DNA from: a virus
Direction: 5' to 3' (one strand)
Length of the DNA: 49,287 bases
Virus genome (UHGV): UHGV-0210521
This document shows, one piece after another, positions 1-44,589 of this stretch (the first letter of the stretch is position 1; each line of letters opens with the position of its first letter). The position numbers and the translations under genes are program-made. A model generated the notes under the pieces. That model made no database searches and was not told the DNA's origin. It was given only the letters and a program-made list of their open reading frames with translations.

Positions 1-2460
1 AACGATCCAGACAATCTGGAAGGCAACCTGACTGCCTATGTGCAGGCGTTCTCACCGAACGCGCGTGACGTGATGCAGTCTTACAGTTTCTTCAACGTGA
101 TCGACCGGCTCGACCGATCGGGACTCTTGTTCCAGATTCTTGACGCGTTCACCGCCCCTGATGTTGATCTGTCTCCGAAAGCGGTCTCGAACGCCGACAT
201 GGGCACCATTTTCGAAGAGCTTATCCGCCGTTTCAATGAGCTCTCGAACGAAACCGCTGGCGAACACTTCACACCCCGTGAGGTCATTAACCTCATGGTC
301 AACATCTTGTTTGAACCGGACATGGACGTGATTTGCGAGCCAGGGTTCATGGCCTCGCTGTATGACCCAGGGGCAGGCACAGGTGGCATGTTATCCACCG
401 CGATTGAGCAAGCCCACGACCTGAACGACCGAGCACGCATTGAAGTCTACGGACAAGAGCTCAACCCGCAAACCTATGCGGTGGCGAAATCGGACACTCT
501 CATCAAGGGTGAGGATGCCGACCGAATCTACTTCGGCAACTCCTTAACGGACGATAAGACTGCTGGGCGGACATTCAACTATATGCTGTGCAATCCACCG
601 TTTGGAGTTGAATGGAAGAAGTACGCTGACCCGATCAAGGAAGAAGCTGAGAAGCGGGGCTGGAATGGCCGCTTCGGCGCAGGGCTGCCGAGGATCTCGG
701 ACGGCTCATTCTTGTTCTTGCAGCACATGATCTCCAAAATGAAGCCCTACAATCCGAACGACACTCAGAAATCTCCGGGCACGCGCATCGCGATCGTGTT
801 CAACGGCTCACCCCTGTTCACAGGTGCTGCTGGGTCAGGTGAATCCAACATCCGGCGTTGGATCCTTGAAAACGACTGGCTCGAGGCGATCATCGCCCTG
901 CCTGACCAGATGTTCTATAACACGGGGATACTTACCTACATTTGGGTGCTCTCCAACCGCAAGGAACCCCGACGCAAGAACAAGGTACAGCTCATTGACG
1001 CCACCGGCTTCTTTGATCGGATGCGCAAACCACTGGGCGAAAAACGCAAATACCTCACCGAGGACAACATCGCTGACATTGCACAGATCTATGGCAGTTT
1101 CACTGAAGGTGAGCATTCAAAGATTTTCGACACCACCGAGTTCGGCTTCCGTGAGGTCACAGTAGAACGCCCACTACGGTTGAACTTCCAAGTCAGTCCC
1201 GAGCGCATTGAGCGACTGTGGGAACAAACCACATTCAAGAACCTTGCCAGCTCGAAGAAACGCAGCGAGCCTGCACGCAGCGCCGAAATCCAAGCAGGCA
1301 AGAACGCCCAGATTGCTATCGTCAGTGCGCTCGATAGCCTTGACGGTGAGGTGATGTGGAAGAACCGCGACGAATTCACAAAGGTTCTCAAAGCTGCTTT
1401 CAAAGAGCTTGGTTTGACGGTGCGCGCACCGCTACTCAAAGCGATCCTTGCTGCTCTTGGTGAAACTGATCCGAGTGCGGATATCTGCTACGGCGCGAAA
1501 GGTAACGTAGAGCCAGACCCTGCTCTGCGCGACACCGAGCAAGTCCCACTCGCTGAGGATATCGACGCCTACGTTCAACGTGAAATCATCCCATACGCCG
1601 CCGACGCCTACGTCGACCCGGATAAGACGAAGATTGGCTACGAGATCCCCTTCACGCGCTACTTCTACCAATACGAAGAACTCGGCGACCCCACCGAGAC
1701 CCTCGCCGAAATCCAAACGCTCGGTGCCGACATCCAAGCAGCCATCGCCAAACTATTCAGTGAGCAGTGCAAGCGTGAACTGATCGCCCACACCGTCACC
1801 AAAGGCCTCAACCCCGACGCCCCAATGAAAGACAGCGGTATTGACTGGATTGGGAAGATTCCAAATCACTGGCATTCTCGTTCTCTGAAATCTCTGTTGA
1901 CCCGTAAATCGCGTAAGGGTGAGCCTTCCTGGAGAGTTCTTTCTGTTGAACGTGAGCGTGGGGTTGTAGATCGTGAACTTGAAGGGTCGCCAGATAATAA
2001 CAACCGTCTACCAGATGATTTGAGTGGTTATTTGGTAGTTCGGAACGGCCAATTTGTTATGAACAAAATGAAGGCTTGGCAAGGATCATATGGAGTGTCG
2101 CTGTATGACGGGATTGTCAGTCCTGCGTATTACACCTTCGATTTAGCGTCTTCCGTGGATTCTGAATTCTTCAACTGGGCTATACGGTCAAAAGCATATA
2201 TTCCCTTCTTTGGCAGGGATTCTTACGGAATTCGCACAGATCAATGGGACTTTAAGGTACAGGCGCTCCGAAATATTCCACTATTTGTTCCTCCGGTGGA
2301 AGAGCAAAGGCAAATCGTTGACTACCTTGTTCAACGGCTGAAAGGGATCGATGGTTTGATTACCGATTTGGATCGTCAGGTTGAGTTGTTGAGGCGGTAT
2401 CGCAAGCAGGTTATTAACGATGTGGTGACGGGCAAGATCCGTGTCAGTGAGGAGGCATGA
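1..2460 (+). CDS. hsdM: Type I R-M N6-adenine DNA methyltransferase HsdM (5' end outside window) fused in-frame to a half-size HsdS specificity module (one target-recognition domain plus one conserved region, from about nt 1825)
   Basis: Reading frame is open from nt 1 (no stop before the ATG at 40). MTase motifs YDPGAGTGGML and LCNPPFGVEWKK. C-terminal ~210 aa (IDWIGKIPNHW ... IPLFVPPVEEQRQIVDYL ... VVTGKIRV) resemble HsdS TRD plus conserved region; no stop separates M and S parts. Confidence 0.8.
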   Translation, partial: NDPDNLEGNLTAYVQAFSPNARDVMQSYSFFNVIDRLDRSGLLFQILDAFTAPDVDLSPKAVSNADMGTIFEELIRRFNELSNETAGEHFTPREVINLMVNILFEPDMDVICEPGFMASLYDPGAGTGGMLSTAIEQAHDLNDRARIEVYGQELNPQTYAVAKSDTLIKGEDADRIYFGNSLTDDKTAGRTFNYMLCNPPFGVEWKKYADPIKEEAEKRGWNGRFGAGLPRISDGSFLFLQHMISKMKPYNPNDTQKSPGTRIAIVFNGSPLFTGAAGSGESNIRRWILENDWLEAIIALPDQMFYNTGILTYIWVLSNRKEPRRKNKVQLIDATGFFDRMRKPLGEKRKYLTEDNIADIAQIYGSFTEGEHSKIFDTTEFGFREVTVERPLRLNFQVSPERIERLWEQTTFKNLASSKKRSEPARSAEIQAGKNAQIAIVSALDSLDGEVMWKNRDEFTKVLKAAFKELGLTVRAPLLKAILAALGETDPSADICYGAKGNVEPDPALRDTEQVPLAEDIDAYVQREIIPYAADAYVDPDKTKIGYEIPFTRYFYQYEELGDPTETLAEIQTLGADIQAAIAKLFSEQCKRELIAHTVTKGLNPDAPMKDSGIDWIGKIPNHWHSRSLKSLLTRKSRKGEPSWRVLSVERERGVVDRELEGSPDNNNRLPDDLSGYLVVRNGQFVMNKMKAWQGSYGVSLYDGIVSPAYYTFDLASSVDSEFFNWAIRSKAYIPFFGRDSYGIRTDQWDFKVQALRNIPLFVPPVEEQRQIVDYLVQRLKGIDGLITDLDRQVELLRRYRKQVINDVVTGKIRVSEEA

Positions 2461-5400
2461 TGGATACGTCGGAGCGCAGGTTTGAGTCCGAGATCGAATA
2501 CTGGCTGACTACCCAGGGAGCGGAGTTTGACCGGTTTGAGACGCGTGACTCGCAGGGTTTTGATCGCGAGCTGTGCATGTATCCAGCTGACCTGATCCAG
2601 TTTGTGAAAACTACGCAACCGGATCAGTGGGCCAAACTGGAGCGGGCCTATCACGGTCGAGCCGAGGAACGTTTCGCGAAACGTGTGGCTGATCAGTTGG
2701 ATCAGCGTGGCGTGATTGAGATGCTGCGGCGCGGTGTAGAGGATGTTGGTGCCCGCTTTAAGCTGGTCTATTTCGCTCCGGGTACGGATTTGAATGAAGC
2801 TCTGGCAGAGAAATACTGGCAAAATCAGATGAGCATCATGCGGCAGGTGCATTATTCGACGAAGAATGAGAACTCTGTTGACACGGTACTGCTGGTGAAC
2901 GGCATCCCGTTGGTAACACTCGAGTTGAAAAATCAGCTGACTGGGCAGACATATCGTGATGCGATCCGTCAGTACAAGATGGACCGTTCCCCGTCGGAAA
3001 AGCTCTTCGCCCTGGGTAAACGTGCGGTGGTGCACTTCGCGGTTGATACCGATGAGGCGTGGATGACTACGAAGCCCGCCGGGCTCGACACCGTGTTCTT
3101 GCCGTTTAATCGTGGCGTGAATAATGGTGCTGGGAACCCGCCTGTGGAGGGCAAGTTCAAGACGGCCTACTTGTGGGAGCAGGTGCTTGCGAAAGACTCG
3201 TTGCTCGACATTCTGCACCGGTTCGTGCAGTTCGTGCCGGGCAAAGATGGAAGTGGTCGGCGGGCGCGGCCGAAAGACAAGGTGATCTTCCCGCGTTTCC
3301 ATCAGTTGGATGCGGTACGAGCACTCGTTAAGGATGCGAAAGAGCAGGGTGCTGGGCACAACTATTTAGTGCAGCATTCAGCTGGTTCGGGTAAGTCGAA
3401 CACGATCGCATGGCTGGCTCACCACTTATCGAATTTGCATGATGACCAGCAGCGGGTGGTTTTCGATTCGATCATCGTGATCACCGACCGACGCGTGCTG
3501 GATAAGCAGCTCCAAGACACGGTGTTTTCGATGGATCACACAGCAGGCGTCGTCGTAAAGGTTGATAAGAACGCCCGCCAGCTCACCGATGCTCTCGGGC
3601 GTGGTTCGCGCATCATTATCTCGACCTTGCAGAAGTTCCCGTTCGTTGACGTGTCCAGCATCGCGACGGACGGGAAGCGCTTCGCGGTGATTGTGGATGA
3701 GGCGCACTCGTCTCAGACTGGGCAGGCTTCGGAGCGGCTGAAGCAGGTGTTGGCTGACACCGCAAAAGCGGGTGAAGAGTCTGAAGCTGAGCTATTGGAC
3801 CGTTACGCTCGTGCCGAGGCGCAGGTGGAGGCTGCAGAGCTTGAGATTGACGAGCAGATCGCGGCGGATATGACGACCCATGGGCGTCAGGCGAATCTGT
3901 CGTTCTTCGCGTTCACGGCCACACCTAAGCAGAAAACCTTGGAGATTTTTGGAACCCCGGTTGCTGGTGGCACTCCGCGCCCGTTCCATGTGTATTCGAT
4001 GAAGCAGGCGATCGAGGAGGGTTTCATCCTCGACGTACTAGAGAATTACACCACGTATAGGACTTACTACAAGATCGGCAAGAAAACGGCTGACGATCCC
4101 GAGTATGGGAAGAAGCAAGCGAACAAGGCACTCGGCAAATACTTGGCGTTGCACCCGCATAATCTGCGGCAGAAAGCCGAGATCATTATCGAGCATTTCC
4201 GCTCCAATGTGGTGCACAAGATCGGCGGTAAGGCCAAGGCAATGCTGGTGACCGGTTCCCGGTTGCACGCGGTGCGCTACTTTTTCGCCTTCCAAGACTA
4301 CATTCGGGCCAAGGGTTATACCGATCTCGGCGTTCTCGTGGCGTTCTCCGGCACCGTCGAAGACGATGGACAGGACTACACCGAGGAGCAACTCAACGGC
4401 TTCCCCGAAGCCGAGCTGCCCGATCGGTTCGACACCGGTGAGTACCAGATTCTGCTGGTGGCCGAGAAATACCAGACCGGGTTCGACCAGCCCCTGCTGC
4501 AGACCATGTATGTGGACAAGAAGCTCCACGGGGTCAAGGCCGTGCAGACCCTGTCGCGGATCAACCGAATGTGCCCGGGCAAGTCAGATACGTTCGTGTT
4601 GGACTTCGTCAACAGCGCTGACGACATTCAGGCGGCGTTCCAAGACTATTACGTGTCGACCTCGATCAGCGAGGAAACCGACCCGAACATCGTCTACGAT
4701 CTCTACCACCTGATCGCCTCCTACCAGCTGTGGCGAGATGAAGAGATCGACGGATTCGCGACCGTGTTCTTCAGAGAGCAAAAGCAGCAGACCAACCTCG
4801 ACTTTGGCAGGCTCAACGCCTACCTCGACCCTGCGGTCGACCGCTTTGACGCGCTTGACGATGAGGAAAAGCTCGAGGTGCGCTCGGCGTTCAACAAGTT
4901 CAACCGCAACTACGAGTTCTTGACCCACATCATCCGCTTCGACGACGAGCAGCTGCATAAGTTCGCCGCATACGCGAAGCTGCTGACCCGCAAGCTCCAC
5001 ATCGACGGCGACCCTGCCCCACACCTGGATGATGAGGTCACCTTGCAGTACTACCGGCTCCAGTCGGTCTATGAGGGTTCCATCGACCTACAAGACCGGG
5101 TGGGTGAGTTGAAGAACTCGCCCAAGCTGGGCATGCCCACCGCGGACGAACGTGAACGGCTCTCGAAGATCCTCGACTCCCTCAACGAACGATGGGGCAC
5201 CGAGTTCACCAACATGGACAAAGTCCTCGAACAAGTCGCCGATGACCTTGCACAAGATGATGAAATTCAACTACGTGCTCACAACACGCTGGACTTGTTC
5301 AAGATCATCTATGACGAGAAGATGCCCGACGTGATGCTCTCACGGATGACGCAGAACCAAGAATTCGCCATGAAGTACCTCTCCGACCCTGTGTTCAGAG

Positions 5401-5474
5401 GTGACGTGGATGCGATCTTACTGCCGCTTATCCATGAGCGCCTCAATCGTCGCGACGAGGATACTGCCGTTTAA
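2457..5474 (+). CDS. hsdR: Type I restriction enzyme HsdR (nuclease plus SF2 ATPase/translocase)
   Basis: 1005 aa; Walker A SAGSGKS, DEAH box AVIVDEAHSS, N-terminal nuclease-like VLLVNGIPLVTLELK; start overlaps upstream stop (ATGA); GGAGG upstream. Confidence 0.85.
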   Translation: MMDTSERRFESEIEYWLTTQGAEFDRFETRDSQGFDRELCMYPADLIQFVKTTQPDQWAKLERAYHGRAEERFAKRVADQLDQRGVIEMLRRGVEDVGARFKLVYFAPGTDLNEALAEKYWQNQMSIMRQVHYSTKNENSVDTVLLVNGIPLVTLELKNQLTGQTYRDAIRQYKMDRSPSEKLFALGKRAVVHFAVDTDEAWMTTKPAGLDTVFLPFNRGVNNGAGNPPVEGKFKTAYLWEQVLAKDSLLDILHRFVQFVPGKDGSGRRARPKDKVIFPRFHQLDAVRALVKDAKEQGAGHNYLVQHSAGSGKSNTIAWLAHHLSNLHDDQQRVVFDSIIVITDRRVLDKQLQDTVFSMDHTAGVVVKVDKNARQLTDALGRGSRIIISTLQKFPFVDVSSIATDGKRFAVIVDEAHSSQTGQASERLKQVLADTAKAGEESEAELLDRYARAEAQVEAAELEIDEQIAADMTTHGRQANLSFFAFTATPKQKTLEIFGTPVAGGTPRPFHVYSMKQAIEEGFILDVLENYTTYRTYYKIGKKTADDPEYGKKQANKALGKYLALHPHNLRQKAEIIIEHFRSNVVHKIGGKAKAMLVTGSRLHAVRYFFAFQDYIRAKGYTDLGVLVAFSGTVEDDGQDYTEEQLNGFPEAELPDRFDTGEYQILLVAEKYQTGFDQPLLQTMYVDKKLHGVKAVQTLSRINRMCPGKSDTFVLDFVNSADDIQAAFQDYYVSTSISEETDPNIVYDLYHLIASYQLWRDEEIDGFATVFFREQKQQTNLDFGRLNAYLDPAVDRFDALDDEEKLEVRSAFNKFNRNYEFLTHIIRFDDEQLHKFAAYAKLLTRKLHIDGDPAPHLDDEVTLQYYRLQSVYEGSIDLQDRVGELKNSPKLGMPTADERERLSKILDSLNERWGTEFTNMDKVLEQVADDLAQDDEIQLRAHNTLDLFKIIYDEKMPDVMLSRMTQNQEFAMKYLSDPVFRGDVDAILLPLIHERLNRRDEDTAV

Positions 5475-5518
5475 ACCCACGCGACCACGGGTCGTGCTTG
5501 CGCACCACTCCAAAGCAT

Positions 5519-5536
5519 GTTAGCATAGTTGCTAAC
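5519..5536. promoter_or_regulatory. Perfect palindrome GTTAGCA-TAGT-TGCTAAC, candidate operator for the downstream HTH regulator
   Basis: 7-bp inverted arms with 4-bp spacer, 22 bp upstream of the ATG at 5558 and just upstream of the AGGAGG RBS. Confidence 0.4.
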
Positions 5537-5557
5537 AACGTTAGGAGGTTGTTTCTC

Positions 5558-5932
5558 ATGGCTGAATCAGAAACCTTTGGCACTTTCCTTGAGCAACATA
5601 GGAAAGACCAAGATCTCACCATGCGCAGGTTCGCAGACATGATCGGAGTCACTGCACCCTATTTGAGCGATATTGAAAAAGGGCGCAGGGCCGCCCCTGA
5701 CGCGAAGCTGGAGAATATTGCTGACGTACTTCACCTCAACCGCGAAGAACGGGAAAAGATGTACGACCTTGCCGCCCTCACGAGGGAGAACCAAGTATCG
5801 ACTGACTTGTCGGGCTATATTATGGAAACCGACATGGCGCGAGTTGCCCTTCGCCGAGCCAAGGAGCGAAATCTTAGTCAGCAACAATGGGCAGACATCC
5901 TCGACATCATCGAAGGTGAGGAGGACAAGTAG
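5558..5932 (+). CDS. XRE-family helix-turn-helix transcriptional regulator
   Basis: HTH segment LTMRRFADMIGVTAPYLSDIEKGRRAP; AGGAGG RBS 8 nt upstream of ATG 5558 (track ORF starts at 5498 but the internal ATG has the RBS). Confidence 0.7.
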   Translation: MAESETFGTFLEQHRKDQDLTMRRFADMIGVTAPYLSDIEKGRRAAPDAKLENIADVLHLNREEREKMYDLAALTRENQVSTDLSGYIMETDMARVALRRAKERNLSQQQWADILDIIEGEEDK

Positions 5933-6603
5933 TGAGTCTTGAGCCGAAATACATCAGCAAAGAAAATCTCGACGAACGGGCAGAAAAGCTCCTGTCGAGA
6001 TATCGAGGTGGCACTCTACTCGCCGTAGCGGCACCGCTCGATATCGAACACTTCGCAGAATTCGAGCTCGACGCCAAACTTGACTACCAGCGACTATCGG
6101 CAGATGACTCTGTGCTCGGAATGTCGGTCTTTCAAGATCTGACACTGCCTGTCGCAAGCGCTAGTGGGGCTCGCGCTCATGTTGAAATCCCTGCAAGAAC
6201 CATCGTGATTGACGATCGGGCGCTGGATGACTCACCAGAAGGTCGATTTCGGTTCACCATCGCACATGAGTGCGCGCACCTGATTTTGCACTCACGAATC
6301 TTTTATCGCGACCCTTCGATGTCATGCCCGAACAAGAGTGGTTACCTTCCGTTTACGGCTGAAACCGAAAATGTAGGGAGTGAGAAGTTCAACCGAGGCG
6401 AGTTTCAGGCTAACTATCTTGGCGCGGCCCTGCTTATGCCAAGGATGACCTTTTCACGGGCATTTCATGAGTTTGTGCCACTGCCATGGGCAGAGATGAC
6501 TGACCGTAATAAGCGTCAAGTCGTCTCGCAACTCGCAGACCTGTTCAACGTATCTCCGACCGCCGCCGCTCTTCGCATCAAACATCTCGAACTGGCCTCG
6601 TAA
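5932..6603 (+). CDS. ImmA/IrrE-family zinc metallopeptidase (HExxH)
   Basis: HECAHLILH motif; GTG start overlaps the stop of the HTH gene by 1 nt (translational coupling). Confidence 0.7.
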   Translation: MSLEPKYISKENLDERAEKLLSRYRGGTLLAVAAPLDIEHFAEFELDAKLDYQRLSADDSVLGMSVFQDLTLPVASASGARAHVEIPARTIVIDDRALDDSPEGRFRFTIAHECAHLILHSRIFYRDPSMSCPNKSGYLPFTAETENVGSEKFNRGEFQANYLGAALLMPRMTFSRAFHEFVPLPWAEMTDRNKRQVVSQLADLFNVSPTAAALRIKHLELAS

Positions 6604-6681: not shown

Positions 6682-6837
6682 ATGGAAACAATCAAGAACG
6701 CAGCAGGCAAGACAATCTGCCGAGTCGATCTGCACAACAAACACATAGAAATTGTCAACAAGGGCTATCGATCGTGGATTTGGTTCGACGCCACGGGCAG
6801 ACTTCACGAACGTCACGAGCCACGACAGCCACCCTAA
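6682..6837 (+). CDS. Hypothetical small protein (51 aa)
   Basis: ATG with GGAGG RBS 5 nt upstream; below the 60-aa ORF-track cutoff; lower GC than surroundings; no recognisable domain. Confidence 0.25.
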   Translation: METIKNAAGKTICRVDLHNKHIEIVNKGYRSWIWFDATGRLHERHEPRQPP

Positions 6838-7016
6838 CCAGGCGACATCGCAAGCACACAACTGAATAAAAACAAGAACAAAGTTCGATCCGCAGAACCG
6901 CTAGACGGGCAAGGATCACGCAATTCCTCCACAAGGAGGCGCGTGAACCTGCCCGTCTTTGCTGTCTCTGCGGCTTGGCGGACTCCTGCGGATCTCAATC
7001 CGACAGGAGAAAACCA

Positions 7017-7745
7017 ATGTCCAAGCGCTCCGACGCTCAAGAAACCTTTCGCACAATCACAATCCGCTTCAAGCACGAAGCAGACAACAACAAGAACGAG
7101 TCCACCACCGACACTTTCGACATCGACCCTGGCGAGTTCGCTCTCATGATCGCTACCGACCGCCAGCAACGCGCCGCAGCTACTGGTGTTCCGCTCGACC
7201 AGGTTAAGCCGCGCACCGCACAGAAAATCCTGGACGAGTTGTGGAACGCAGAAGAAGCAGCCACACATAAGGCGGTTCGCGCCGATCGCGGCAAGGGCAA
7301 GAAGAAATGCACGTGCGGAGCCGGGTGCGGTCCTCGACGTGGATGCCGTCTGCCAAACAACAAGCCCTTTTCGTATGAGCAGATGCTCGACATCGACCTT
7401 GACCCTGCTTCGCCAGGTATCAGCGCTGAAGACCAGGCCATCGAACGTGAGAACAGCGTCCAGCGTGCCCGTGAGCTCAAGGTGATGCGTGACGTCATCG
7501 ACGGGTTGGATCCCCAGCATCGCGAGGTGATGACGCGCCTTCTCGCAACCGACAAGCTCAATCAGGCGCAGGTGGCGCGCGACATGGGGTTGACCCGCGC
7601 TCGGGTATCGCAGCTGGTGGCAGAGGTGAAACCGATGATCCGACAGGCGGTCGAGGATGCCCGATTTAACACTTTCGGCGGTGTCGGCAGTGGGGTGAAG
7701 GGAGAAGCCAACCGGGCTACTCCCACCAACATGGAAGAAAGGTAA
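7017..7745 (+). CDS. Putative phage regulator with C-terminal sigma-70 region-4-like HTH
   Basis: C-terminal LDPQHREVMTRLLATDKLNQAQVARDMGLTRARVSQLV; ATG 7017 preceded by AGGAGA; Lys/Cys-rich segment KGKKKCTCGAGCGPRRGC. Confidence 0.5.
   Translation: MSKRSDAQETFRTITIRFKHEADNNKNESTTDTFDIDPGEFALMIATDRQQRAAATGVPLDQVKPRTAQKILDELWNAEEAATHKAVRADRGKGKKKCTCGAGCGPRRGCRLPNNKPFSYEQMLDIDLDPASPGISAEDQAIERENSVQRARELKVMRDVIDGLDPQHREVMTRLLATDKLNQAQVARDMGLTRARVSQLVAEVKPMIRQAVEDARFNTFGGVGSGVKGEANRATPTNMEER
7663..7704. repeat. Conserved 42-bp element copy A (GATTTAACA-N17-GTCGGCAGTGGGGTGAAGGGAG)
   Basis: Near-identical copies at 13465-13502 and 43902-43943; lies 46 nt upstream of the gene starting at 7751. Confidence 0.6.
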
Positions 7746-10177: not shown

Positions 10178-12145
10178 ATGCGAACACTCTTCTGCGATAT
10201 CGAGACTTTCAGTCCTGTTCAGCTCGCCAAGACAGGCGTCTACCCGTATGCCGAGCACCCCGACTTCGACCTGCTCCTCTTCGGATATTCGATTGACGGC
10301 GGCCCGGTCGAGGTCGTGGATCTTGCAGGCGGCCAGCAGATCCCCGACAATGTGCTATCAGCTCTGGTGGATCCGGGTGTGGTCAAGTGGGCGCATAACG
10401 CCGCCTTCGAACGAGTCTGCTTGTCCGCCTGGCTACGCACGCATCATCCCGAACTGCTGGATGGCGGGTTTCTTGACCCAAGGCAGTGGCGGTGCACCAT
10501 GATCTGGTCCGCCTACCTCGGACTACCGATGAGCCTCGACGCAGTAGCCACAGTTTTGAAACTTGACGTTCAAAAAGACAGCGCCGGACGCAAGCTGATC
10601 AAGCAGTTCTGCACACCCGCCACACCCTCAGTCTTGAATGGCGGCAAACACAGGAATCCACCATCAGCGGATCCCGCCGGCTGGGCACATTTCATTGACT
10701 ACAACCGGCGCGACGTCGAAGTCGAACAAGCCATCCACGACAGACTGGCGTTTTTTCCGATGCCAGACTCCGAATGGGACACCTATGCCCTTGACCAACG
10801 CATTAATGATGCCGGGATTCTTCTCGACTACACGCTCGTCGATAATGCCGTTACCGTGGATGAGCACCACCGCAACGCGTCGCTTGCACGGGCACAGAAG
10901 CTCACAGGGTTGGACAATCCCAACTCGCCAATCCAACTCAAACAATGGCTCCACAACCACGGCTGCGAACTCGAATCACTAGCGAAAGCCGACGTCGATG
11001 CCGCCCTCGACACCGCGACCGGCGCGGTGAAAGAAGTCCTCGGACTCCGTGGTGATCTGGCGAAATCTTCGGTGAAGAAATACCAGGCGATGCACAACGT
11101 CGCAGGCAGTGACGGCCGGGCACGCGGGCTGATCCAGTTCTACGGAGCAGGACGCACTGGGCGCTTCGCAGGACGCCTCGTCCAAGTCCAAAACCTGCCA
11201 AGGAATTACCTGACAGATCTCGACCAAGCACGCACGCTCGTCAGAACAGGCAACCTTGATGCGCTTGAGCTGCTCTACGAGTCCGTGCCCGACACCCTCA
11301 GCCAACTCATCCGCACCGCATTCATCCCCAGCACCGGCCACAGGTTTATCGTTGCGGACTTTTCCGCAATCGAAGCGCGCGTTATCGCATGGCTCGCAGG
11401 AGAAACAACCACCCTGGCCGCCTTCCGCGACGGTAAAGACCTCTACTGCGAAACCGCATCGCGCATGTTCGGCGTCCCGGTCGAAAAGCACGGCATTAAT
11501 GGCGAGCTACGTCAAAAGGGGAAGATCGCGGTGCTCGCCTGTGGCTATGGCGGCTCAGTTGGTGCTCTCAAAGCCATGGGAGCCCTCACCATGGGACTCG
11601 CCGAGCATGAGCTCAAACCGATCGTGGACGCATGGCGGCAAGCCAACCCACACATCGTTGGGCTCTGGGCCGACGTCGAAGAAGCCGCGATCGCCGCGAT
11701 CACCTCGCGCCAGCCGATCCGCTTGCGTAACCTGCGATTCTCCGTTGAGTCCGGGATTCTCTTCATCGAACTGCCCTCAGGCAGGAGATTAGCGTATGTG
11801 CAGCCGCGTCTGGGTGAGAATCGTTGGGGTGGCACGTCCATCACCTACACCGGCACCACCGCAGCCAGACGTTGGGGACAGCTCGAAACCTACGGCGGGA
11901 AACTTGTCGAGAATATCGTCCAAGCAATCGCCCGTGATCTGCTCGTCACTGGCATGCACGCAGTCGCCAAGGCGGGGCATCGGATTGTGATGCATGTTCA
12001 TGATGAAATTGTCATCGACGAACCCGAAAATTCCGGCTTCACCGTGACTGATGCATGTGCTCTTATGTCGACGCTCCCAGCCTGGGCCGAAGGTTTGCCG
12101 TTGGATGCGGATGGGTATGAGTGCGCCTATTACCGTAAGGATTAG
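10178..12145 (+). CDS. Family A DNA polymerase (phage Pol I-like with 3'-5' exonuclease domain)
   Basis: 655 aa; exo motif FCDIETFS, pol motifs DFSAIEARVIAWLAGE, RQKGKIAVLACGYGGS, HVHDEIVID. Confidence 0.85.
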   Translation: MRTLFCDIETFSPVQLAKTGVYPYAEHPDFDLLLFGYSIDGGPVEVVDLAGGQQIPDNVLSALVDPGVVKWAHNAAFERVCLSAWLRTHHPELLDGGFLDPRQWRCTMIWSAYLGLPMSLDAVATVLKLDVQKDSAGRKLIKQFCTPATPSVLNGGKHRNPPSADPAGWAHFIDYNRRDVEVEQAIHDRLAFFPMPDSEWDTYALDQRINDAGILLDYTLVDNAVTVDEHHRNASLARAQKLTGLDNPNSPIQLKQWLHNHGCELESLAKADVDAALDTATGAVKEVLGLRGDLAKSSVKKYQAMHNVAGSDGRARGLIQFYGAGRTGRFAGRLVQVQNLPRNYLTDLDQARTLVRTGNLDALELLYESVPDTLSQLIRTAFIPSTGHRFIVADFSAIEARVIAWLAGETTTLAAFRDGKDLYCETASRMFGVPVEKHGINGELRQKGKIAVLACGYGGSVGALKAMGALTMGLAEHELKPIVDAWRQANPHIVGLWADVEEAAIAAITSRQPIRLRNLRFSVESGILFIELPSGRRLAYVQPRLGENRWGGTSITYTGTTAARRWGQLETYGGKLVENIVQAIARDLLVTGMHAVAKAGHRIVMHVHDEIVIDEPENSGFTVTDACALMSTLPAWAEGLPLDADGYECAYYRKD

Positions 12146-13086
12146 CTGTTGATTGTCCAGATGGGATCTTGTTTCCAGCTGGGGCTGGCACCTATGTGCG
12201 TTAGATCGACGCCAGGAATTTCGGTGGGGAAACTGTCTAGGACGTCGCTGATGGCCTGTATTTCAGCGGTGAAATTTCCTCGTCGCAAGAGGAATGCGGT
12301 GAGTACCAGCGCGGTGTACATACGTCCTGAAGAATGTGTCACGGCCGATAGCGTTTGGTCGTTGCGGCGGTGTTTGACCAGTGGACGGATAACGAGTTGC
12401 CTATTCCATAGTCTGGCGTGGTGAGCGCATATGTTACGAATGTAATTCGCAGTGCGCATCCACGATTCCAACTCGTCGGCACGTGCCAAGTACTTGTCAG
12501 CAATGCGACGACGCTGTTCGAAGGGAGCCAACGAAAACAGGGTCACGAGTTGTCCGAACTCAAGAATCTCGGTAACCACCCACACCGGCAAACGACCGTC
12601 GTGGGTCTGGTTGTAATGCTTGACGAAATCTTCTGTAGAGCGCGACTGTGTTTGGGTGAGCTTCTGCGTAAAGAATGCTGCTCTGTGATTCATCGCCCCC
12701 GATGGCCAAATCCGTTCGAGGTCGAGGTGAATGAACGGATCGATCTCACCCAGCACGTGCCCCACGTCAACTCGCAGGCACACCTCCAGCTTGCATAGCG
12801 CCTGCCACACAGCCAAGCGTAGCCGCTCATCAAACTCGTACAGCTCTACCACATGCCCCATACGTGCACCGAGAACGAAATGGTCCAAACGCCGTTGCGG
12901 CGAATCAGATGGAGCGATCTGACGCAACGGGTAGGAGTATCCCGAAAGCCGGTAATAGCCGACAGTAGATAACTCGCGGCGGTAATCACCGGCATCCAAT
13001 AGGCCACGACGAGTGAGAATATTAATCTGCTCATCGATACTGGCCCACGGTTTATCGACCACCAGCCCACCTGCTTCCAAAAACAT
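12142..13086 (-). CDS. Abi_2 family abortive-infection protein (AbiD/AbiF-like)
   Basis: 314 aa on the opposite strand; N-terminal ... INILTRRGLL ... VGYYRLSGYSYP signature; convergent with the polymerase gene. Confidence 0.7.
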   Translation of the reverse strand: MFLEAGGLVVDKPWASIDEQINILTRRGLLDAGDYRRELSTVGYYRLSGYSYPLRQIAPSDSPQRRLDHFVLGARMGHVVELYEFDERLRLAVWQALCKLEVCLRVDVGHVLGEIDPFIHLDLERIWPSGAMNHRAAFFTQKLTQTQSRSTEDFVKHYNQTHDGRLPVWVVTEILEFGQLVTLFSLAPFEQRRRIADKYLARADELESWMRTANYIRNICAHHARLWNRQLVIRPLVKHRRNDQTLSAVTHSSGRMYTALVLTAFLLRRGNFTAEIQAISDVLDSFPTEIPGVDLTHIGASPSWKQDPIWTINS

Positions 13087-13464
13087 GAAGACCGGCTCTG
13101 ACCTGTCTCGGAAACCGATACAAGCGAGCCGGTACTAGTGGTAATCACTATACCGCGAAAACAGCGACAGAATCAAGAACTCGGCGAAGTATCACCATCA
13201 GAGAAGAAAGCTTATCCAAGACCGCTAAGAAACGAGAACCGACCCTGCGCTCCCACCGAGGCGGGCAGCGGAACCGGTCATGTTGTCTAAAAGACCACCG
13301 TGTCGGCACCGCTGTAGCAAGAGAATGATGGTTCTTCCACACAGAGCACTCGAGAAATTTGTCTATGCCCCGGCGAGAATACCTGCCAGATTGCTCTAAC
13401 AGATAGCGCTCCACCGGGGCTTCAACACCAATCGTGCCAGAACGAGAAGCGATTGAGTACCCGT

Positions 13465-13502
13465 GATTTAACACTTTCGGGCTCGTCGGCAGTGGGGTGA
13501 GG
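13465..13502. repeat. Conserved element copy B (GATTTAACA-N17-GTCGGCAGTGGGGTGAGG)
   Basis: Intergenic, 66 nt upstream of the antirepressor start; matches copies A and C. Confidence 0.6.
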
Positions 13503-13567
13503 CCCTTAACTCCTTGTGTCGACCGGCACGATTTTTTCTCGACGGGGTCTCGGGAAGGAACCCCGCC

Positions 13568-14332
13568 ATGGGAAACCAGATTCAAACATTCACCAACGAC
13601 GTGTTCGGCACCATTCGCACCATCACCACTGATGGCCAGATCCTTTTCTGCGGCAAGGACGTCGCCACCGCGCTCGGCTACCAGGATCCGACGAACGCGG
13701 TGAAGCTACACTGCAAGGGGGTGGCAAATTACCACCCCCTTGAGACCGCTGGTGGAATCCAGCAGGTCCGCTTCATTACCGAGGGCAACCTGTACCGCCT
13801 CATCATCTCCTCAAAGCTCCCGGCAGCGCAGAAGTTCGAAGCCTGGGTGTTCGATGAGGTGTTGCCGACGATTCGCCGCCACGGCATGTACGCATACGAC
13901 GAACTGCTCGCTGATGATGAGTTCCTCGAGCATGCCATCGCCACGCTGCGTGCTGAGCGGGCCAAGCGCCTGGCAGCAGAGCAAGCCTTACTTGAGGCGG
14001 CACCGAAAGTCTCGTACTACGACCTCGTGTTGCAGTCCGATTCGTTGTTGACGACGACCGCGATTGCGAAGGACTACGGACTTTCCGCGAAGAAACTCAA
14101 CCGGATCCTGCGTGATGCTCACGTGCAGTTCCATCAGTCGGACCGGTGGTTCCTGTACGCGAAGTACGCCGAGCAGGGATACACCCAGTCCAAGACCCAC
14201 GAATACGGCGAGGGGCAGACCCGCACCCACATGTACTGGACGCAAAAGGGGCGTCTGTTCATCTACGACCTGCTCAAGAACCAGCTCGGCATTCTGCCTG
14301 TCATCGAGCGTCAAGGTCAGGTGCAAGCATGA
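13568..14332 (+). CDS. Phage antirepressor (Bro-N domain plus KilA-C/Ant C-terminal domain)
   Basis: N-terminal FTNDVFGTIRTITTDGQILFCGKDVATALGY; start moved to internal ATG 13568 with GGAAGGAA upstream. Confidence 0.7.
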   Translation: MGNQIQTFTNDVFGTIRTITTDGQILFCGKDVATALGYQDPTNAVKLHCKGVANYHPLETAGGIQQVRFITEGNLYRLIISSKLPAAQKFEAWVFDEVLPTIRRHGMYAYDELLADDEFLEHAIATLRAERAKRLAAEQALLEAAPKVSYYDLVLQSDSLLTTTAIAKDYGLSAKKLNRILRDAHVQFHQSDRWFLYAKYAEQGYTQSKTHEYGEGQTRTHMYWTQKGRLFIYDLLKNQLGILPVIERQGQVQA

Positions 14333-20966: not shown

Positions 20967-22157
20967 ATGACTATGGTTCGCAGCGCTGAAGCAGTGTGTG
21001 TCGGCCATCCCGATAAGCTCTGCGACCTGATCGCCGACACCATTCTCGACGACATCCTCTACGAGGATCCTGCTGCCCGCGTTGCAGTAGAAGTGATGGC
21101 ATCTGGTCACAGGATCATTGTGACTGGCGAGATAACTTCGAAGGTTCGTCCGCGTATTCGTGAGTCGGTGCGTTATGCGTTGGTGAAGGCGGGGTATGTG
21201 CCGTGGAAGTTCCTCGTTTTCGTCTGGACTCGCAGGCAGTCTCCAGACATCAACGCAGGAGTCACCCGATCGCTCGAAGCTCGTTTCGGTGACGACACTG
21301 AGTTCGCCCTCCAAGGAGCAGGTGACCAAGGAACCGTTTATGGATACGCCACGGCGGAAACCCCGGAGCGTTTGCCGTTGCCGCTGGTGCTCTCACACGA
21401 GATTTGCGCCCGCCTCGATAAGGCGCGCAAGGACGGCACGATCACCGGGATCAAGTCCGATGGTAAGGCGCAGGTGACAGTTCGTTACGACGCTGCTGGT
21501 AAGCCCGTGGCGGTTGAGACCGTGGTGGTGTCGATCCAACACGAGAAGATCAAGGATCTGGATGAGCTTGCAGCTGAGGTCAAAACACTGATCGTCGCAC
21601 CCGCGTGTAAGCCGTACCGGCCGATTAGCGCTGATACCGAGATTCTGGTGAATCCCTCGGGCTTGTTTACGGTTGGTGGGCCGAAGGCGGACACTGGACT
21701 GACGGGCCGCAAGTTGATGGTTGACACTTACGGCGGACTCGCCCCTCACGGTGGTGGAGCGTTCTCTGGTAAGGACGCCTCGAAGGTGGACCGCTCGGGT
21801 GCATATATGGCGCGCCTGATCGCCAAGACTATCGTCGACGCTCGTCTGGCTCATGAGTGTCAGGTGGCGATCAGTTATGCGATTGGGAAGGCTGACCCGG
21901 TCGCCTTCACCATCGACACCCTCGGGACAGGCGAATACTCTGACGAGATCCTCACTGCTGCTGCACGCGAGGTGTTCTCGCTGCGCCCTGGAGCAATCAT
22001 CGATGCTTTGAATCTTCGCAAGCCTGGTTTTACACAGTATTCAACCTATGGGCACTTCGGCCATGTCGGTCTGCGTTGGGAGAACTCGTTCGCTCACGTT
22101 AATGCTTTAGGGAAGGCGGTGAAGAAGCATGCTCATGAAAACAATGCCAATAGCTGA
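20967..22157 (+). CDS. metK: S-adenosylmethionine synthetase (methionine adenosyltransferase)
   Basis: MetK signatures GHPDKLCD, RQSPDINAGV, GAGDQG, LTGRKLMVDTYGG, HGGGAFSGKDASKVDRSGAY, YGHFG. Confidence 0.85.
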   Translation: MTMVRSAEAVCVGHPDKLCDLIADTILDDILYEDPAARVAVEVMASGHRIIVTGEITSKVRPRIRESVRYALVKAGYVPWKFLVFVWTRRQSPDINAGVTRSLEARFGDDTEFALQGAGDQGTVYGYATAETPERLPLPLVLSHEICARLDKARKDGTITGIKSDGKAQVTVRYDAAGKPVAVETVVVSIQHEKIKDLDELAAEVKTLIVAPACKPYRPISADTEILVNPSGLFTVGGPKADTGLTGRKLMVDTYGGLAPHGGGAFSGKDASKVDRSGAYMARLIAKTIVDARLAHECQVAISYAIGKADPVAFTIDTLGTGEYSDEILTAAAREVFSLRPGAIIDALNLRKPGFTQYSTYGHFGHVGLRWENSFAHVNALGKAVKKHAHENNANS

Positions 22158-23379
22158 GCTGAAGCCCGCTGACTACAATCCGCGTAAAGACCTCCAGCCC
22201 GGCGATCCCGAATACGAGAAGCTCAAGCGCTCGCTCACCGAGTTTGGCTACGTCGAACCCGTCATCTGGAACAAGACCACCGGCAACATCGTGGGTGGGC
22301 ATCAGCGCTTGAAGGTGCTCGAAGAACTCGGCCACAACACCGTGGATGTGATCGTCGTGGAGTTGGATGAGACGCGCGAGAAAGCCCTCAACATCGCGTT
22401 GAATAAGATCAGCGGCGAATGGGATAACGATAAACTTGCCCTCCTCATCGCTGACCTTGACGCTTCGGATTTCGACGCTGAACTGACTGGCTTTGACGAT
22501 GCTGAGATCGCGCAGCTTATCGGCTCCCTCGACGAGGGTGAGGTGGAGGATGATGATTTCGACCTCACCGCCGCACTCGAAGCAGCCGCATTTGTCCAGC
22601 GTGGGGATGTGTGGACGGTCGGTCGCCACCGCCTCGTGTGCGGGGATGCCACCAGTGCCGACGACATCGCCACACTGATGGATGGTAAGCGCGCGAATCT
22701 TGTGTTGACCGATCCGCCATATAACGTTGCCTTCGAATCAGGCTCGGGCTTGTCCATCAAGAACGACAAGATGGATGGCGAGAAGTTCTACGACTTCCTG
22801 CTATCGGCGTTTACGAACATGGCGGGCGTGTGTGAGAAAGGCGCATCCGCGTATGTGTTCCACGCTGACACTGAAGGGTTGAATTTCCGTCGCGCCTTCG
22901 CAGAGGCCGGATTCTATCTTTCGGGGTGTTGCATCTGGGTCAAAGACTCTCTGGTTCTTGGTCGCTCGCCCTACCAGTGGCAGCACGAGCCAGTGCTCTA
23001 CGGGTGGGTGAAGACAGGTAAGCATCGCTGGTATGCGGATCGCAAACAAACCACGATCTGGAATTTCGCTAAGCCCCGCCGCAACGCCGATCATCCGACC
23101 AGCAAGCCGCTGGATTTGTTGGCGTATCCGATCGGAAACTCCACCCAGGCGAACGCGATCGTGCTCGACACCTTCGCAGGCTCAGGCTCAACCTTGATGG
23201 CGTGCGAGGCAACCGACCGCATCTGCTATTGCATGGAGTTCGACGAGAAATACGCCTCCGTGATTTTGCGCCGCTATGCCGAACACACCGGGGACGCGGC
23301 AGGGATCACCTGTTTGCGTGAGGGCAAAGAATACGCGTATTTGGATTTGGTGCGCGATGTTGATCGGGGTGAATCGTGA
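22129..23379 (+). CDS. ParB-like nuclease domain fused to DNA methyltransferase (N6-adenine/N4-cytosine class, DPPY motif)
   Basis: N-terminal ParB-like PIAELKPADYNPR ... GGHQRL; MTase motif LVLTDPPYNVAF; start choice (22129, 22135 or 22144) uncertain. Confidence 0.8.
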   Translation: MLMKTMPIAELKPADYNPRKDLQPGDPEYEKLKRSLTEFGYVEPVIWNKTTGNIVGGHQRLKVLEELGHNTVDVIVVELDETREKALNIALNKISGEWDNDKLALLIADLDASDFDAELTGFDDAEIAQLIGSLDEGEVEDDDFDLTAALEAAAFVQRGDVWTVGRHRLVCGDATSADDIATLMDGKRANLVLTDPPYNVAFESGSGLSIKNDKMDGEKFYDFLLSAFTNMAGVCEKGASAYVFHADTEGLNFRRAFAEAGFYLSGCCIWVKDSLVLGRSPYQWQHEPVLYGWVKTGKHRWYADRKQTTIWNFAKPRRNADHPTSKPLDLLAYPIGNSTQANAIVLDTFAGSGSTLMACEATDRICYCMEFDEKYASVILRRYAEHTGDAAGITCLREGKEYAYLDLVRDVDRGES

Positions 23380-24887
23380 GTGCTTTGACGTTGGGGTCCT
23401 TGTTTGATGGTTCGGGCGGTTTCCCTTTAGCTGCCAAAATGGTTGGTATCAAACCGATGTGGGCATCTGAGGTAGACCCCTTCGCTATCCGGGTAACTAA
23501 GAAAAATCTGCCTGAAGTTCGCCATGTTGGCGATATTAATTTGTTAGATGGTGGCCGGTTACAGCCGGTGGATGTGATCACGTTTGGTTCACCTTGTCAG
23601 GATTTATCTATCGCAGGTAAGCGGAGCGGGATTGATGGGTCTCGCTCCTCACTGTTTTACCAAGCTGTGCGAATTATTGAAGAAATGAGGCAAGCAACTC
23701 ATGGTGCCTACCCAAGATATGCTGTGTGGGAAAACGTGCCGGGCGTATTCTCCTCAAACCACGGAGCCGACTTCGCCGCGGTCTTGCAAGCGTTTATCGA
23801 GGTATCCTGCCAGCAAACGCCACGCATTCCTGTTCCTGAAACCAGCTGGGCAACCAGCGGATACGTCTTGGCAGATGGGGCATCACTTGCATGGCGAGTG
23901 CTCGATGCTCAATTTTTCGGAGTGCCCCAACGTCGTCGTCGTATCTTCCTTGTCGCAGATTTTGCAGGACAATCCGCACCCGAGATTCTATTTGAGTCCC
24001 AAAGCAGCACAAGGAATCCTGACGCGAGCAAAGAAGAAAAACAAAACCCTGCCCGAACAATTAGCCCAAGCACTACAGGCAACCAGTGCGGGGCGTTAAC
24101 TCTTCGTATGCGTGCCGGTAAGCCAGGCGGTGGTAAAGGGCCGTTGATTCAGCATGACCTTTCAGGCACATTAGGAACTGGTGCTGACCAAGTCTTATTT
24201 GAACCTAGCATGCAGGTGATGCTTGATTACCATCCCAATGATTCACGCATCGAAATTGGCGACCAGGTAACAAGTCAAACCTTAACTTCACGAATGGGAA
24301 CAGGAGGTGGAAATGTTCCACTCCTACTCGACCAACCTGTATACGGTATAAATTCCGTCCACGACAATCGTAAATATGGTGGTGAATGCGGTTACGAAAC
24401 CACTGTGGCAAAAACTCTTGATTTAGCTGGCGGTAATCCCGCATGCAATCAAGGCGGAATGGTCATTCTCGAACCGATCTATGCTTCTTCGAAATCTGAT
24501 CATTTCACGAGGGCAACCACAAATGTTTCAGGTGCACTTTTGGCAAGTGATTCACACCAGCCACCTATTGTCGCTAATACGATGCTTCGACCACGCAAAC
24601 TCACACCCCTCGAATGTTCTCGTCTACAAGGCTTCCCGGACTATTGGTGTGACAACCTCACAAACCTCGACCCAGACGAAGACGAAATCAGGTACTGGGA
24701 GGGCGTGTGGAAGAACTGGAACCTAGGACGGGGCGTGAAACCGAAAACTCGCAGCCAAATCACTACTTGGCTGAAAACCGCGCCAACTGATTCAGCACAG
24801 TACAAACTGTGGGGAAATGGGGTGGCATTACCAGTAGTGAAATACGTCCTCAACAGGCTACAAAAAGCAGCCAATACGACTGGATAA
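23376..24887 (+). CDS. DNA (cytosine-5)-methyltransferase
   Basis: Motif I LFDGSGG, motif IV GSPCQDLSIAG, motif VI WENVPG, motif VIII QRRRR, motif X WGNGVALP; long variable region between VIII and IX. Confidence 0.85.
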   Translation: MSALTLGSLFDGSGGFPLAAKMVGIKPMWASEVDPFAIRVTKKNLPEVRHVGDINLLDGGRLQPVDVITFGSPCQDLSIAGKRSGIDGSRSSLFYQAVRIIEEMRQATHGAYPRYAVWENVPGVFSSNHGADFAAVLQAFIEVSCQQTPRIPVPETSWATSGYVLADGASLAWRVLDAQFFGVPQRRRRIFLVADFAGQSAPEILFESQSSTRNPDASKEEKQNPARTISPSTTGNQCGALTLRMRAGKPGGGKGPLIQHDLSGTLGTGADQVLFEPSMQVMLDYHPNDSRIEIGDQVTSQTLTSRMGTGGGNVPLLLDQPVYGINSVHDNRKYGGECGYETTVAKTLDLAGGNPACNQGGMVILEPIYASSKSDHFTRATTNVSGALLASDSHQPPIVANTMLRPRKLTPLECSRLQGFPDYWCDNLTNLDPDEDEIRYWEGVWKNWNLGRGVKPKTRSQITTWLKTAPTDSAQYKLWGNGVALPVVKYVLNRLQKAANTTG

Positions 24888-24963: not shown

Positions 24964-25152
24964 ATGAGCGAACTACATATCGAGATCAGCGAAATGCTCG
25001 ACGCGGGCATCAATATCTGGGATGTCGAGGAAGCCCACGACATTGCACGAAAGTGGGACTTCCCGCTGGTTGTCGGTGCGATCGAACACGACCCGCACGG
25101 CTATTTGCGTCTGGTCGAGTCTTGGTTTGACGGTGAGGGTGTGGCGGCATGA
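24964..25152 (+). CDS. Hypothetical small acidic protein
   Basis: 62 aa, about 23 percent Asp+Glu; GGAGGA RBS 6 nt upstream of ATG 24964; downstream of repeat copy 1. Confidence 0.45.
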   Translation: MSELHIEISEMLDAGINIWDVEEAHDIARKWDFPLVVGAIEHDPHGYLRLVESWFDGEGVAA

Positions 25153-25796
25153 ACCAAATTTCGTTCGCCTCGAACCAGAGCGGGCGTAAGAAACTCGCCG
25201 ACACCATCGCCTCTCACCTTGGCGTCAGAGCGGAGTATACGGGCACGCCCACGTTCGACTACCAGATCGGAAATGCACGCCTTGATCAGGATTGGGTGCT
25301 CCACCTCCCAGAGGAGGTCGACACCGACGCCCTCACCGAGACGGCGATTACGGCTGGTTTTGCACCCACGGGCGAGGAGTACGGGCTGACGCTCGCATTC
25401 CCCACGACTGGCTGGGACGAGGCCACAGGCGCGAAGCTTGAAGCCCTGCTCGCCGCCAAGGGAGCACTCATCGCCAAGGCACTCGATATTCCAGCCACGC
25501 CCATGAAGATGGACGAGGTGGAGGGAACGGTTGAGTTTGCTTGGTTCGATCAGCTTCCTGAGGCGGAGGTGATTGAGGTGGCTAGCGTGCTTATCCAGCT
25601 GATGATCGAGCATGCCAAGACCGCCACCCGTATCTCGCCGAAGCCACCTGCGTCGGGTAATGATAAGTATGCGATGCGCTGTTGGCTGCTACGGCTGGGG
25701 ATGATTGGCAAGGGATACAAGAACGCTCGCCGCGTTCTGCTGGCAAACCTTGACGGGAACGCGGCGTGGAAAACCGCGCCACACCCGGCCGAATAA
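25149..25796 (+). CDS. Hypothetical phage protein
   Basis: 215 aa; ATGA overlap with the upstream gene; no recognisable catalytic motif. Confidence 0.5.
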   Translation: MNQISFASNQSGRKKLADTIASHLGVRAEYTGTPTFDYQIGNARLDQDWVLHLPEEVDTDALTETAITAGFAPTGEEYGLTLAFPTTGWDEATGAKLEALLAAKGALIAKALDIPATPMKMDEVEGTVEFAWFDQLPEAEVIEVASVLIQLMIEHAKTATRISPKPPASGNDKYAMRCWLLRLGMIGKGYKNARRVLLANLDGNAAWKTAPHPAE

Positions 25797-44543: not shown

Positions 44544-44589
44544 ACACTTGGTTTAGAGCGTGTATAGACCTAACGCGAAAGGAGAAAAC

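Follow-up and report, generated by a model that had tools for sequence, protein, structure and literature searches.

The virus genome UHGV-0210521 (49,287 nt, referred to below in its entirety as the window) is an Actinomycetaceae (Actinomyces-type) prophage that encodes, in reverse orientation within its replication module, a protein of the Abi_2 (AbiD/AbiF-like) abortive-infection family. An earlier note had called this gene, abi, from the letters alone and had pointed to an 8-bp inverted repeat next to its start. The gene call is correct and ordinary, and the inverted repeat is the informative part of the locus: it is the outer stem of a conserved, covarying RNA hairpin of ~45 nt on the strand of the gene. 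We consider it fairly probable, on the evidence of sequence comparison, that the locus is a two-part actinobacterial AbiF-like module in the style of type III toxin–antitoxin systems, composed of a hairpin RNA and a HEPN RNase. The family, fold and motif of the protein, as well as the strand, position, structure, covariation, conservation and co-segregation of the hairpin, were all computed directly.

Few anti-phage genes are as abundant as those for AbiD/AbiF proteins, which have been proposed as the ancestors of Cas13. To our knowledge, RNA partners of these proteins have been shown experimentally in two systems only, those of the Prevotellaceae PbAbiF and of Clostridioides difficile AbiF. 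Papers of 2025 and 2026 describe AbiD/AbiF systems as two-component, type III-like toxin–antitoxin modules with an upstream non-coding RNA (ncRNA) (PMC12373285, PMC13064643, PMC12737573), the ncRNA antitoxins of AbiF having been demonstrated by experiment (PMC12373285; reviewed in PMC13064643 and PMC12737573), and for this reason the loci around homologues of the window protein were fetched (loci and contigs are given as L numbers).

The minus-strand open reading frame (ORF) of 314 aa is present as the earlier note described it, with YYRLSGY at residues 44–50, and the hidden Markov model of Pfam Abi_2 (PF07751), on which that note had staked its family assignment, matches strongly (157.7 bits, cutoff 25.6 bits, E = 5.4e-46, profile positions 3–184 of 184). 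The PADLOC AbiD profile (170 bits, E = 1.7e-50, positions 5–273 of 277) and PHROG 2158, ‘abortive infection resistance protein’ (E = 7e-47), match as well; a search of NCBIfam with the same protein returned no match. In an alignment of 34 homologues, N218, A221, H222 and H223 do not vary, and at least 90% of the sequences keep R217; the RNICAH segment of the window protein aligns with RNSCCH of PbAbiF (PDB 8VZ6), an entry that the profile of this alignment matches with E = 9.4e-62. The corresponding residues of characterized proteins, R202 and H207 in C. difficile AbiF and R210 and H215 in PbAbiF, are needed for toxicity (PMC12373285). An AlphaFold2 monomer model of the window protein is confident throughout (predicted local distance difference test, pLDDT, 92.3) except for residues 1–9, the sole segment of low confidence (<50). 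When searched against the PDB with Foldseek, it retrieved 8VZ6_A, ‘PbAbiF dimer bound to ncRNA’ (E = 3.8e-12, template modelling scores 0.76/0.80, 27% identity), and nothing else below E = 1. The ratio of nonsynonymous to synonymous substitution rates (dN/dS) of abi against 92%-identical relatives is 0.18–0.21, which indicates purifying selection. Among the carriers of copies with 92% identity are Gleimia europaea UMB0652 and Mobiluncus mulieris ATCC 35243 (L002, L004). The full-length profile match, the HEPN motif and the AbiF fold, every computable feature of the Abi_2/AbiF family, were found, and by family, fold and catalytic motif the protein is an Abi_2/AbiD–AbiF family HEPN RNase with predicted toxin activity.

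The two arms of the inverted repeat, ACCGGCTC (13091–13098) and GAGCCGGT (13126–13133), are exact, separated by a 27-nt loop and located where the earlier note had placed them. Taken alone, the repeat was rejected as statistically significant: perfect 8-bp inverted repeats with loops of 3–40 nt number 71 in the window, against ~37 expected from first-order Markov simulations, and because such repeats are common by chance, it is conservation and covariation elsewhere that lend this one its significance. On the strand of the gene, the repeat becomes the 8-bp outer stem of a hairpin, hereafter motif B, that continues through a 1-nt 5' bulge and an inner stem and carries a 3-nt 3' bulge, UCA. All variants of the hairpin share the 8-bp outer stem ACCGGYYC/GRGCCGGU, the 1-nt 5' bulge, a 3-nt YCA 3' bulge and a U-rich tail, which belongs to the family consensus GGCCGGUCuUCaUuUUU, while the inner stem is free in sequence and length. 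Pairing was evaluated on alignment A2, whose 37 distinct instances had been gathered by a regular expression in which both arms of the outer stem were obligatory. Paired cells make up 95.4% of the total, compared with 26–51% when partners are slid by 1–3 columns, 58 cells show double changes (0–10 in the slid controls), and none of 500 shuffles matched the observed pairing values. Compensatory changes occur in four of the five inner-stem pairs, and the RNAalifold consensus is identical to the structure written by hand. The outer stem is independently supported by more distant members, weaker covariance-model matches in loci fetched by protein alone, where it too changes in compensation (G-C to A-U in Kribbella and Leifsonia, C-G to U-A in Arachnia). 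The covariance model R1 finds exactly two strong matches in the window, both on the minus strand (13076–13143 and 13223–13288), the former, over motif B, with 54.1 bits and E = 5.5e-15; U-G and G-U pairs are frequent, making the fold specific to the strand of the gene (54 bits on the sense strand against 11 on the antisense). In one viral contig from a metagenome (L085), with 99.8% identity elsewhere, a 38-nt insertion at 5924–5961 interrupts the hairpin after its 5' arm and is probably an artefact of metagenome assembly.

The hairpin accompanies Abi_2 genes across Actinobacteria. A BLAST search with the upstream region of the window recovered a segment of ~60 nt that retains 85–90% identity in front of Abi_2 genes encoding proteins of only 32–35% identity. 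Motif B precedes every B-clade homologue examined (fetched by protein, 44–100% identical to the window protein), in Gleimia, Corynebacterium oculi, Scrofimicrobium, Actinotignum (two tandem copies) and several metagenomic contigs. When R1 was run over 153 Abi_2-centred loci (1.63 Mb, both strands), 71 of the 76 matches at E ≤ 0.01 lay at most ~260 nt upstream of an Abi_2 gene and on its strand, and in three more only an insertion parts hairpin from gene. A B-type pattern searched through all of IMG/VR hit 18 stretches, 16 of which adjoin a B-clade Abi_2 gene, the other two being a tandem with an A-type motif plus gene and an orphan. Subtypes of the hairpin co-segregate with protein clades with no exception among the loci compared: subtype B goes with every protein at least 44% identical to that of the window, subtypes A and C only with proteins at most 38% identical. 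Across 18 related phages none of the 44 hairpin positions varies, in comparison with 10.3% of the coding sequence and 7.2% of the surrounding intergenic DNA. The locus has, directly upstream and on the strand of the gene, a conserved structured ncRNA of the kind that marks AbiF-type systems.

A sigma-70-like promoter, the only promoter-like site on either strand between 11900 and 13800, places the predicted start of transcription a few bases 5' of the hairpin. On the other side of the stem, the U-rich tail is, after the precedent of the RCd22 terminator, a possible attenuator and small-RNA 3' end; a simple terminator scan called no canonical terminator there. Promoter, hairpin and gene have moved as a unit into an unrelated context in Varibaculum (L001), where the sequence shared with the window starts exactly 100 nt upstream of the ATG, so that the segment includes the promoter. 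A minus-strand ORF at 13148–13585 (145 aa) was considered as an upstream partner gene and rejected: it has no Pfam match, spans both RNA motifs and lacks codon periodicity (variable sites by codon position 6/10/6, against 18/22/56 in abi).

The succession of promoter, hairpin, U-rich tail, Shine-Dalgarno-like site and gene, together with the precedent of PbAbiF, in which bases of a single-stranded RNA bulge block the HEPN site (PMC12737573), led us to read the locus as an RNA antitoxin with a HEPN toxin. By that analogy, the invariant YCA bulge would be the obvious counterpart of the site-blocking bulge. Expression of a small RNA, termination at the tail, RNA–protein binding, toxicity and phage exclusion are all predicted in the scheme that we propose. 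Transcription would start at the promoter (13176–13147), a few bases before the hairpin (13133–13090), with most transcripts ending at the U-rich tail to give a small RNA of ~60 nt and read-through yielding the abi mRNA. On the model of PbAbiF–AbiFr and C. difficile AbiF–RCd22, the hairpin RNA would bind the Abi_2 dimer and would place its single-stranded 3' bulge, UCA, in the HEPN site, so that the RNase stays silent as long as the lysogen is undisturbed. A second, infecting phage would then upset the balance of RNA to protein, free the RNase and arrest the cell.

Two characterized systems are closest to this arrangement. AbiF–AbiFr of Prevotellaceae (PbAbiF, 8VZ6; Zilberzwige-Tal et al. 2025, as summarized in PMC12373285, PMC12737573 and PMC13064643) shares the protein family, fold and HEPN motif, and its structured ncRNA likewise lies just upstream on the same strand and carries a 3'-side single-stranded bulge, which in AbiFr blocks the active site. 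It differs in that the proteins are 27% identical and the RNA described here has another sequence and other dimensions, with an 8-bp outer stem, a 1 × 3 internal loop containing YCA and a variable inner stem. The AbiFCd–RCd22 system of C. difficile (Saunier et al. 2025, PMC12373285) is also prophage-borne, has the same order of promoter, RNA motif(s), U-tail or terminator and abi, with two motif copies upstream, and reads RNQCAH where the window protein reads RNICAH. Here, too, identity is low (~25%), and the C. difficile gene sits in a lysis module whereas that of the window sits in the replication module, convergent with the DNA polymerase gene polA. RCd22 moreover combines two RF03085 motifs in one 100-nt RNA, whereas the two copies in the window are of different subtypes, ~145 nt apart, the distal one degenerate. 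The abiF RNA motif RF03085 itself, reportedly described by Weinberg and colleagues in 2017, precedes Abi_2 genes by 30–90 nt, on their strand, and has the same topology of outer stem, 1-nt 5' bulge, inner stem, loop and CA-containing 3' single-stranded bulge; stem lengths, sequence and bulge size (6 nt, against 3 nt here) differ. It does match loci of the same protein family (L123, L151, L153 and L160). Near-identical DNA was not found among GenBank phage records, and a protein search of these records gave Abi_2 homologues of at most 35% identity, all from Firmicutes phages or unclassified gut-metagenome entries named ‘Bacteriophage sp.’, and no actinobacterial Abi_2 phage. The hairpin is, as predicted from these comparisons, a conserved partner RNA of Abi_2 that is absent from Rfam and may already stand in the primary literature on PbAbiF.

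Several points weigh against the reading of the locus as an RNA antitoxin with its toxin. For the actinobacterial members the support comes from sequence, with expression, binding and toxicity predicted, and the window protein is just 25–27% identical to the AbiF proteins studied experimentally. The regular expression that required both arms biases the statistics of the outer stem, the inner stem and the distant covariance-model members being free of this bias. RF03085 has no match at E ≤ 10 in the window or in the actinobacterial loci L039 and L011, which have canonical copies of the motif, and membership of the hairpin in that family was rejected, Rfam scans having given matches at chance level only (snoRNA, miRNA); for lack of an RF03085 match we regard the hairpin RNA as analogous to abiF in position and topology, and not demonstrably homologous. 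Finally, a stem rich in GC with a U tail behind it could be a pure cis attenuator. An alternative built on this last point is a single-gene Abi system with a purely cis-acting leader, whose hairpin would be an attenuator or a start-hiding fold with no antitoxin role in trans, a reading that we think unlikely. The earlier note had leaned towards such a view, suggesting that the repeat lies immediately upstream of the start codon and could occlude it. The repeat does abut the first ATG (13086), but the true start is probably the GTG at 13062 (306 aa), 28 nt downstream, since homologues begin at the equivalents of window residues 8–12, an AGGTGG sits 4 nt upstream of the GTG and residues 1–9 are those modelled with pLDDT below 50; the Gleimia hominis gene (L161, 76% identical) uses GTG as its start codon and lacks an ATG further upstream. 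Occlusion of the ribosome-binding site by the hairpin was rejected because both AGGUGG and the probable GUG lie outside it, and translational blocking is not the best reading of the repeat. Start-hiding could still arise from the leader: in the minimum free energy (MFE) fold of 13055–13141, the 5' leader CCACUAGU pairs with GCUGGUGG, which holds the probable GUG. L161, unlike L005, is predicted to form a comparable pairing, and we did not adopt an element confined to two closely related sequences. The position of the U-rich tail 3' of the stem fits a cis attenuator, and there are precedents in the control of AbiD1 translation through mRNA structure (Bidnenko 2009, as cited in PMC13064643) and in RCd22, whose functions include a cis action through premature termination (PMC12373285). 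Lactococcal AbiD1, a member of the same protein group whose leader mRNA structure limits expression (Bidnenko et al. 2009, via PMC13064643), is the known system closest to the idea of the earlier note; it differs in that the hairpin of the window spares the Shine-Dalgarno-like site and probable start, and no phage activator protein is known for it. Against a purely cis role, ordinary terminators do not keep a near-invariant stem and bulge sequence over many genera, nor do they co-segregate with a protein clade; the distance from hairpin to start is variable (in homologues, from −2 to ~50 nt ahead of the point where the protein match begins); promoter-bearing orphans exist with no downstream gene to regulate; and cis and trans roles coexist in the characterized systems. 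An ncRNA antitoxin probably fits the hairpin better than a translational block does, and we prefer it because the hairpin is conserved, covaries and co-segregates by subtype with the protein clade.

The remaining alternatives carry very little weight. That the repeat acts in DNA, as an operator, recombination site or cruciform, or is a chance palindrome with no function as RNA, seems highly improbable: the abundance of 8-bp repeats in the window would allow for chance, and the conserved motif does coincide with an allele-replacement junction between related phages, but on the opposite strand its many U-G and G-U pairs would turn into A-C mismatches, R1 strongly favours the strand of the gene, and compensatory changes preserve pairing while the sequence of the inner stem varies. 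Equally improbable is that abi is a decaying, non-functional remnant in this prophage. Relatives have indeed been inactivated, by an insertion-sequence (IS) element, a nonsense codon or truncation, yet the window copy is intact, has its catalytic motif, a confident model and a dN/dS of ~0.2, and 16 of 17 close relatives are intact.

Features of the Abi_2 locus in UHGV-0210521, with positions in the window
Feature	Position	Strand	Basis or remark
Abi_2 / AbiD–AbiF family gene	12142..13086	-	Mechanical ORF including stop, 314 aa, ATG start
Overlap of convergent stops, PolA TAG (+) / abi TAA (-)	12142..12145	.	Sequence; same tight junction for all Abi_2 alleles in related phages
HEPN R-phi-xxx-H codons, R217-N-I-C-A-H222 (RNICAH)	12421..12438	-	Conservation and alignment with PbAbiF
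Shine-Dalgarno-like AGGUGG (13072-13067) and probable GUG start (13062-13060)	13060..13072	-	Sequence, homologue starts, low N-terminal pLDDT
Predicted leader/start pairing	13059-13066 with 13134-13141	-	MFE fold
U-rich tail UUCAUGUUUUUGG 3' of hairpin	13077..13089	-	Possible attenuator and 3' end of a ~60-nt small RNA
Hairpin motif B, predicted RNA partner (antitoxin and attenuator)	13090..13133	-	Covariance model R1, covariation, RNAalifold
Sigma-70-like promoter TTGATT-N18-TATAGT	13147..13176	-	Promoter scan; predicted transcription start near 13140
Degenerate hairpin copy, motif A	13223..13288	-	R1 match; subtype normally with a different Abi_2 clade

The second hairpin copy, motif A, scores about as well with R1 as motif B (54.9 bits), but copies in the window clade reach only 44–56 bits, compared with 60–72 for A-type motifs beside their own gene. 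Motif A changes as fast as the background (4 of its 66 sites vary among the 18 related phages), its 3' bulge is altered, three relatives have a deletion in it, and, as judged by eye, its -10-like element reads TGGTCT where that of L100 reads TAACCT. In L100, 88% nucleotide identity extends from the antirepressor gene through motif A and then gives way to the gene of another Abi_2 clade, which indicates allele replacement downstream of a resident motif. We judge it likely that the copy in the window is a decaying relic; a role as the working half of a two-motif RNA, as in RCd22, was considered unlikely in view of the degraded -10 element, altered bulge and background-rate evolution. Mixed tandems of A and B may nevertheless be functional, given that Gleimia hominis (L161) has a sequence-canonical A copy ahead of the B motif and a B-clade gene, and that L102 and L130 have the reverse order of B, A and then an A-clade gene.

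Hairpins with no Abi_2 gene downstream are common in viral contigs, accounting for ~20 of ~44 hairpin-bearing ones among the matches listed (L293, L238, L225, L278, L284, L282, L279, L208, L188, L281, L276, L209, L237, L198, L177, L174/L201, L233, L280, L267, L277 and L294). These orphans score 39–61 bits and have a -10-like element at the usual spacing. One of them, in the cultured lytic Actinomyces phage LC001 (L293, ON920540.1), lies at 25108–25175 on the minus strand, antisense between the genes for a replication initiator and a single-stranded-DNA-binding protein (SSB); others are found between tRNA genes (L267), before an HNH gene (L177) and before a 565-aa ORF that by eye resembles a large terminase (L237). 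Loss of the toxin with retention of the hairpin is also frequent in relatives: a 4.2-kb IS-type insertion with two transposase-like ORFs (by eye) separates motif B from the gene in L003/L096 (1840–6012), a nonsense codon replaces the invariant W169 in L095, the gene is interrupted in L125, and 87-aa N-terminal Abi_2 fragments are what is left in L227, L236 and L257. A model for the orphans is offered by ToxIN, a type III system in which an RNA antitoxin neutralizes an RNase toxin and of which phages may carry the antitoxin-like RNA alone, although the toxin fold is unrelated and so is the RNA, made of tandem repeats processed by the toxin; the phage pseudo-ToxI, reportedly described by Blower and colleagues in 2012, is said to be such a phage-encoded mimic of the ToxIN antitoxin. 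Closer to the present family, a hairpin in the cos region of phage sk1 is reported to protect from AbiF (PMC13064643). Together, the orphans, the loss of toxins with the motif kept and the sk1 hairpin suggest, as a conjecture that we advance tentatively and hold to be doubtful, that the hairpin is a mobile, clade-specific RNA antitoxin also used by phages, the orphans serving as decoys against host or prophage Abi_2 RNases. If so, motif A in the window would be a cross-neutralizing element or a scar of toxin-allele swapping.

The position of abi agrees with the description in the earlier note, reverse-oriented between the genes for a family A DNA polymerase (PolA, 10178–12145, plus strand) and a Bro-N/KilAC antirepressor (Ant, 13514–14332, plus strand). 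It is also, as that note held, the only supported minus-strand gene of the early region, its rivals at 6834–7520 and 13148–13585 being unsupported; the former has no family match and overlaps a plus-strand ORF that matches sigma-70 region 4. The stop codons of PolA and abi overlap, which leaves no room for a terminator between them, and lytic transcription of PolA would run antisense into abi, a possible route to self-silencing. An Abi_2 gene occupies the PolA–Ant slot in every related phage fetched, abutting or overlapping the PolA stop, with PolA convergent and Ant divergent; PolA is 65–100% identical among these phages and the Abi_2 alleles 32–100%. A slot held constant for divergent alleles points to a module fixed in the lineage with a swappable toxin and not to sporadic insertion, so that the view of abi as a typical prophage accessory gene stands in so far as a prophage carries it but fails as regards sporadic acquisition, the slot being filled throughout the lineage. 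Among the phages sharing the slot (L081–L105, L125 and L161), replication proteins are 56–100% identical and alleles fall to 32%, with 85–90% identity in the RNA motif, which suggests swapping of toxin alleles at a conserved RNA.

Close relatives of the window occur in Actinomyces, Gleimia, Mobiluncus, Actinobaculum and Varibaculum. Its left side holds helix-turn-helix (HTH)/ImmA regulators and a replication module with DUF2800, an Enc34-type SSB, PolA, a D5 primase and an SNF2 helicase; HNH, terminase and MetK genes and two DNA methyltransferase genes occupy the middle, followed by structural and lysis genes. Upstream of the HTH/ImmA-type pair, plus-strand genes at 40–6603 encode an N6 methylase (806 aa) and an HsdR-like helicase–nuclease (1005 aa) that belong to either prophage or host. 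At 20967–24887 (plus strand), S-adenosylmethionine synthetase (MetK), a ParB-N/N6-N4 DNA methyltransferase and a C5 cytosine methyltransferase, the gene of the last in a stretch of low GC content (0.49), are likely an anti-restriction set. A second reverse-oriented gene, at 34796–35464 (minus strand), encodes an alpha/beta hydrolase (Abhydrolase_6, E = 5e-14) between tail and tape-measure genes; in L170, a B-clade Abi_2 gene with its hairpin is found in a similar slot beside the tape-measure gene. Side by side at the right end of the prophage lie the genes for two large serine recombinases (426 and 528 aa; 44560–47414, plus strand), and a host ABC transporter gene begins just past them, from 47500 on.

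For the AbiD/AbiF family, the locus supplies a second, sequence-distinct RNA motif that is widespread in Actinobacteria and whose subtypes track protein clades, a natural experiment on RNA–protein specificity in a proposed ancestor of Cas13. It also reveals one actinobacterial prophage lineage that keeps an Abi_2 module in a fixed slot among its replication genes while swapping alleles, and phages with the RNA alone are candidates for RNA-based anti-defence. In annotation, ‘single-gene Abi’ calls of this kind are better treated as two-component loci.

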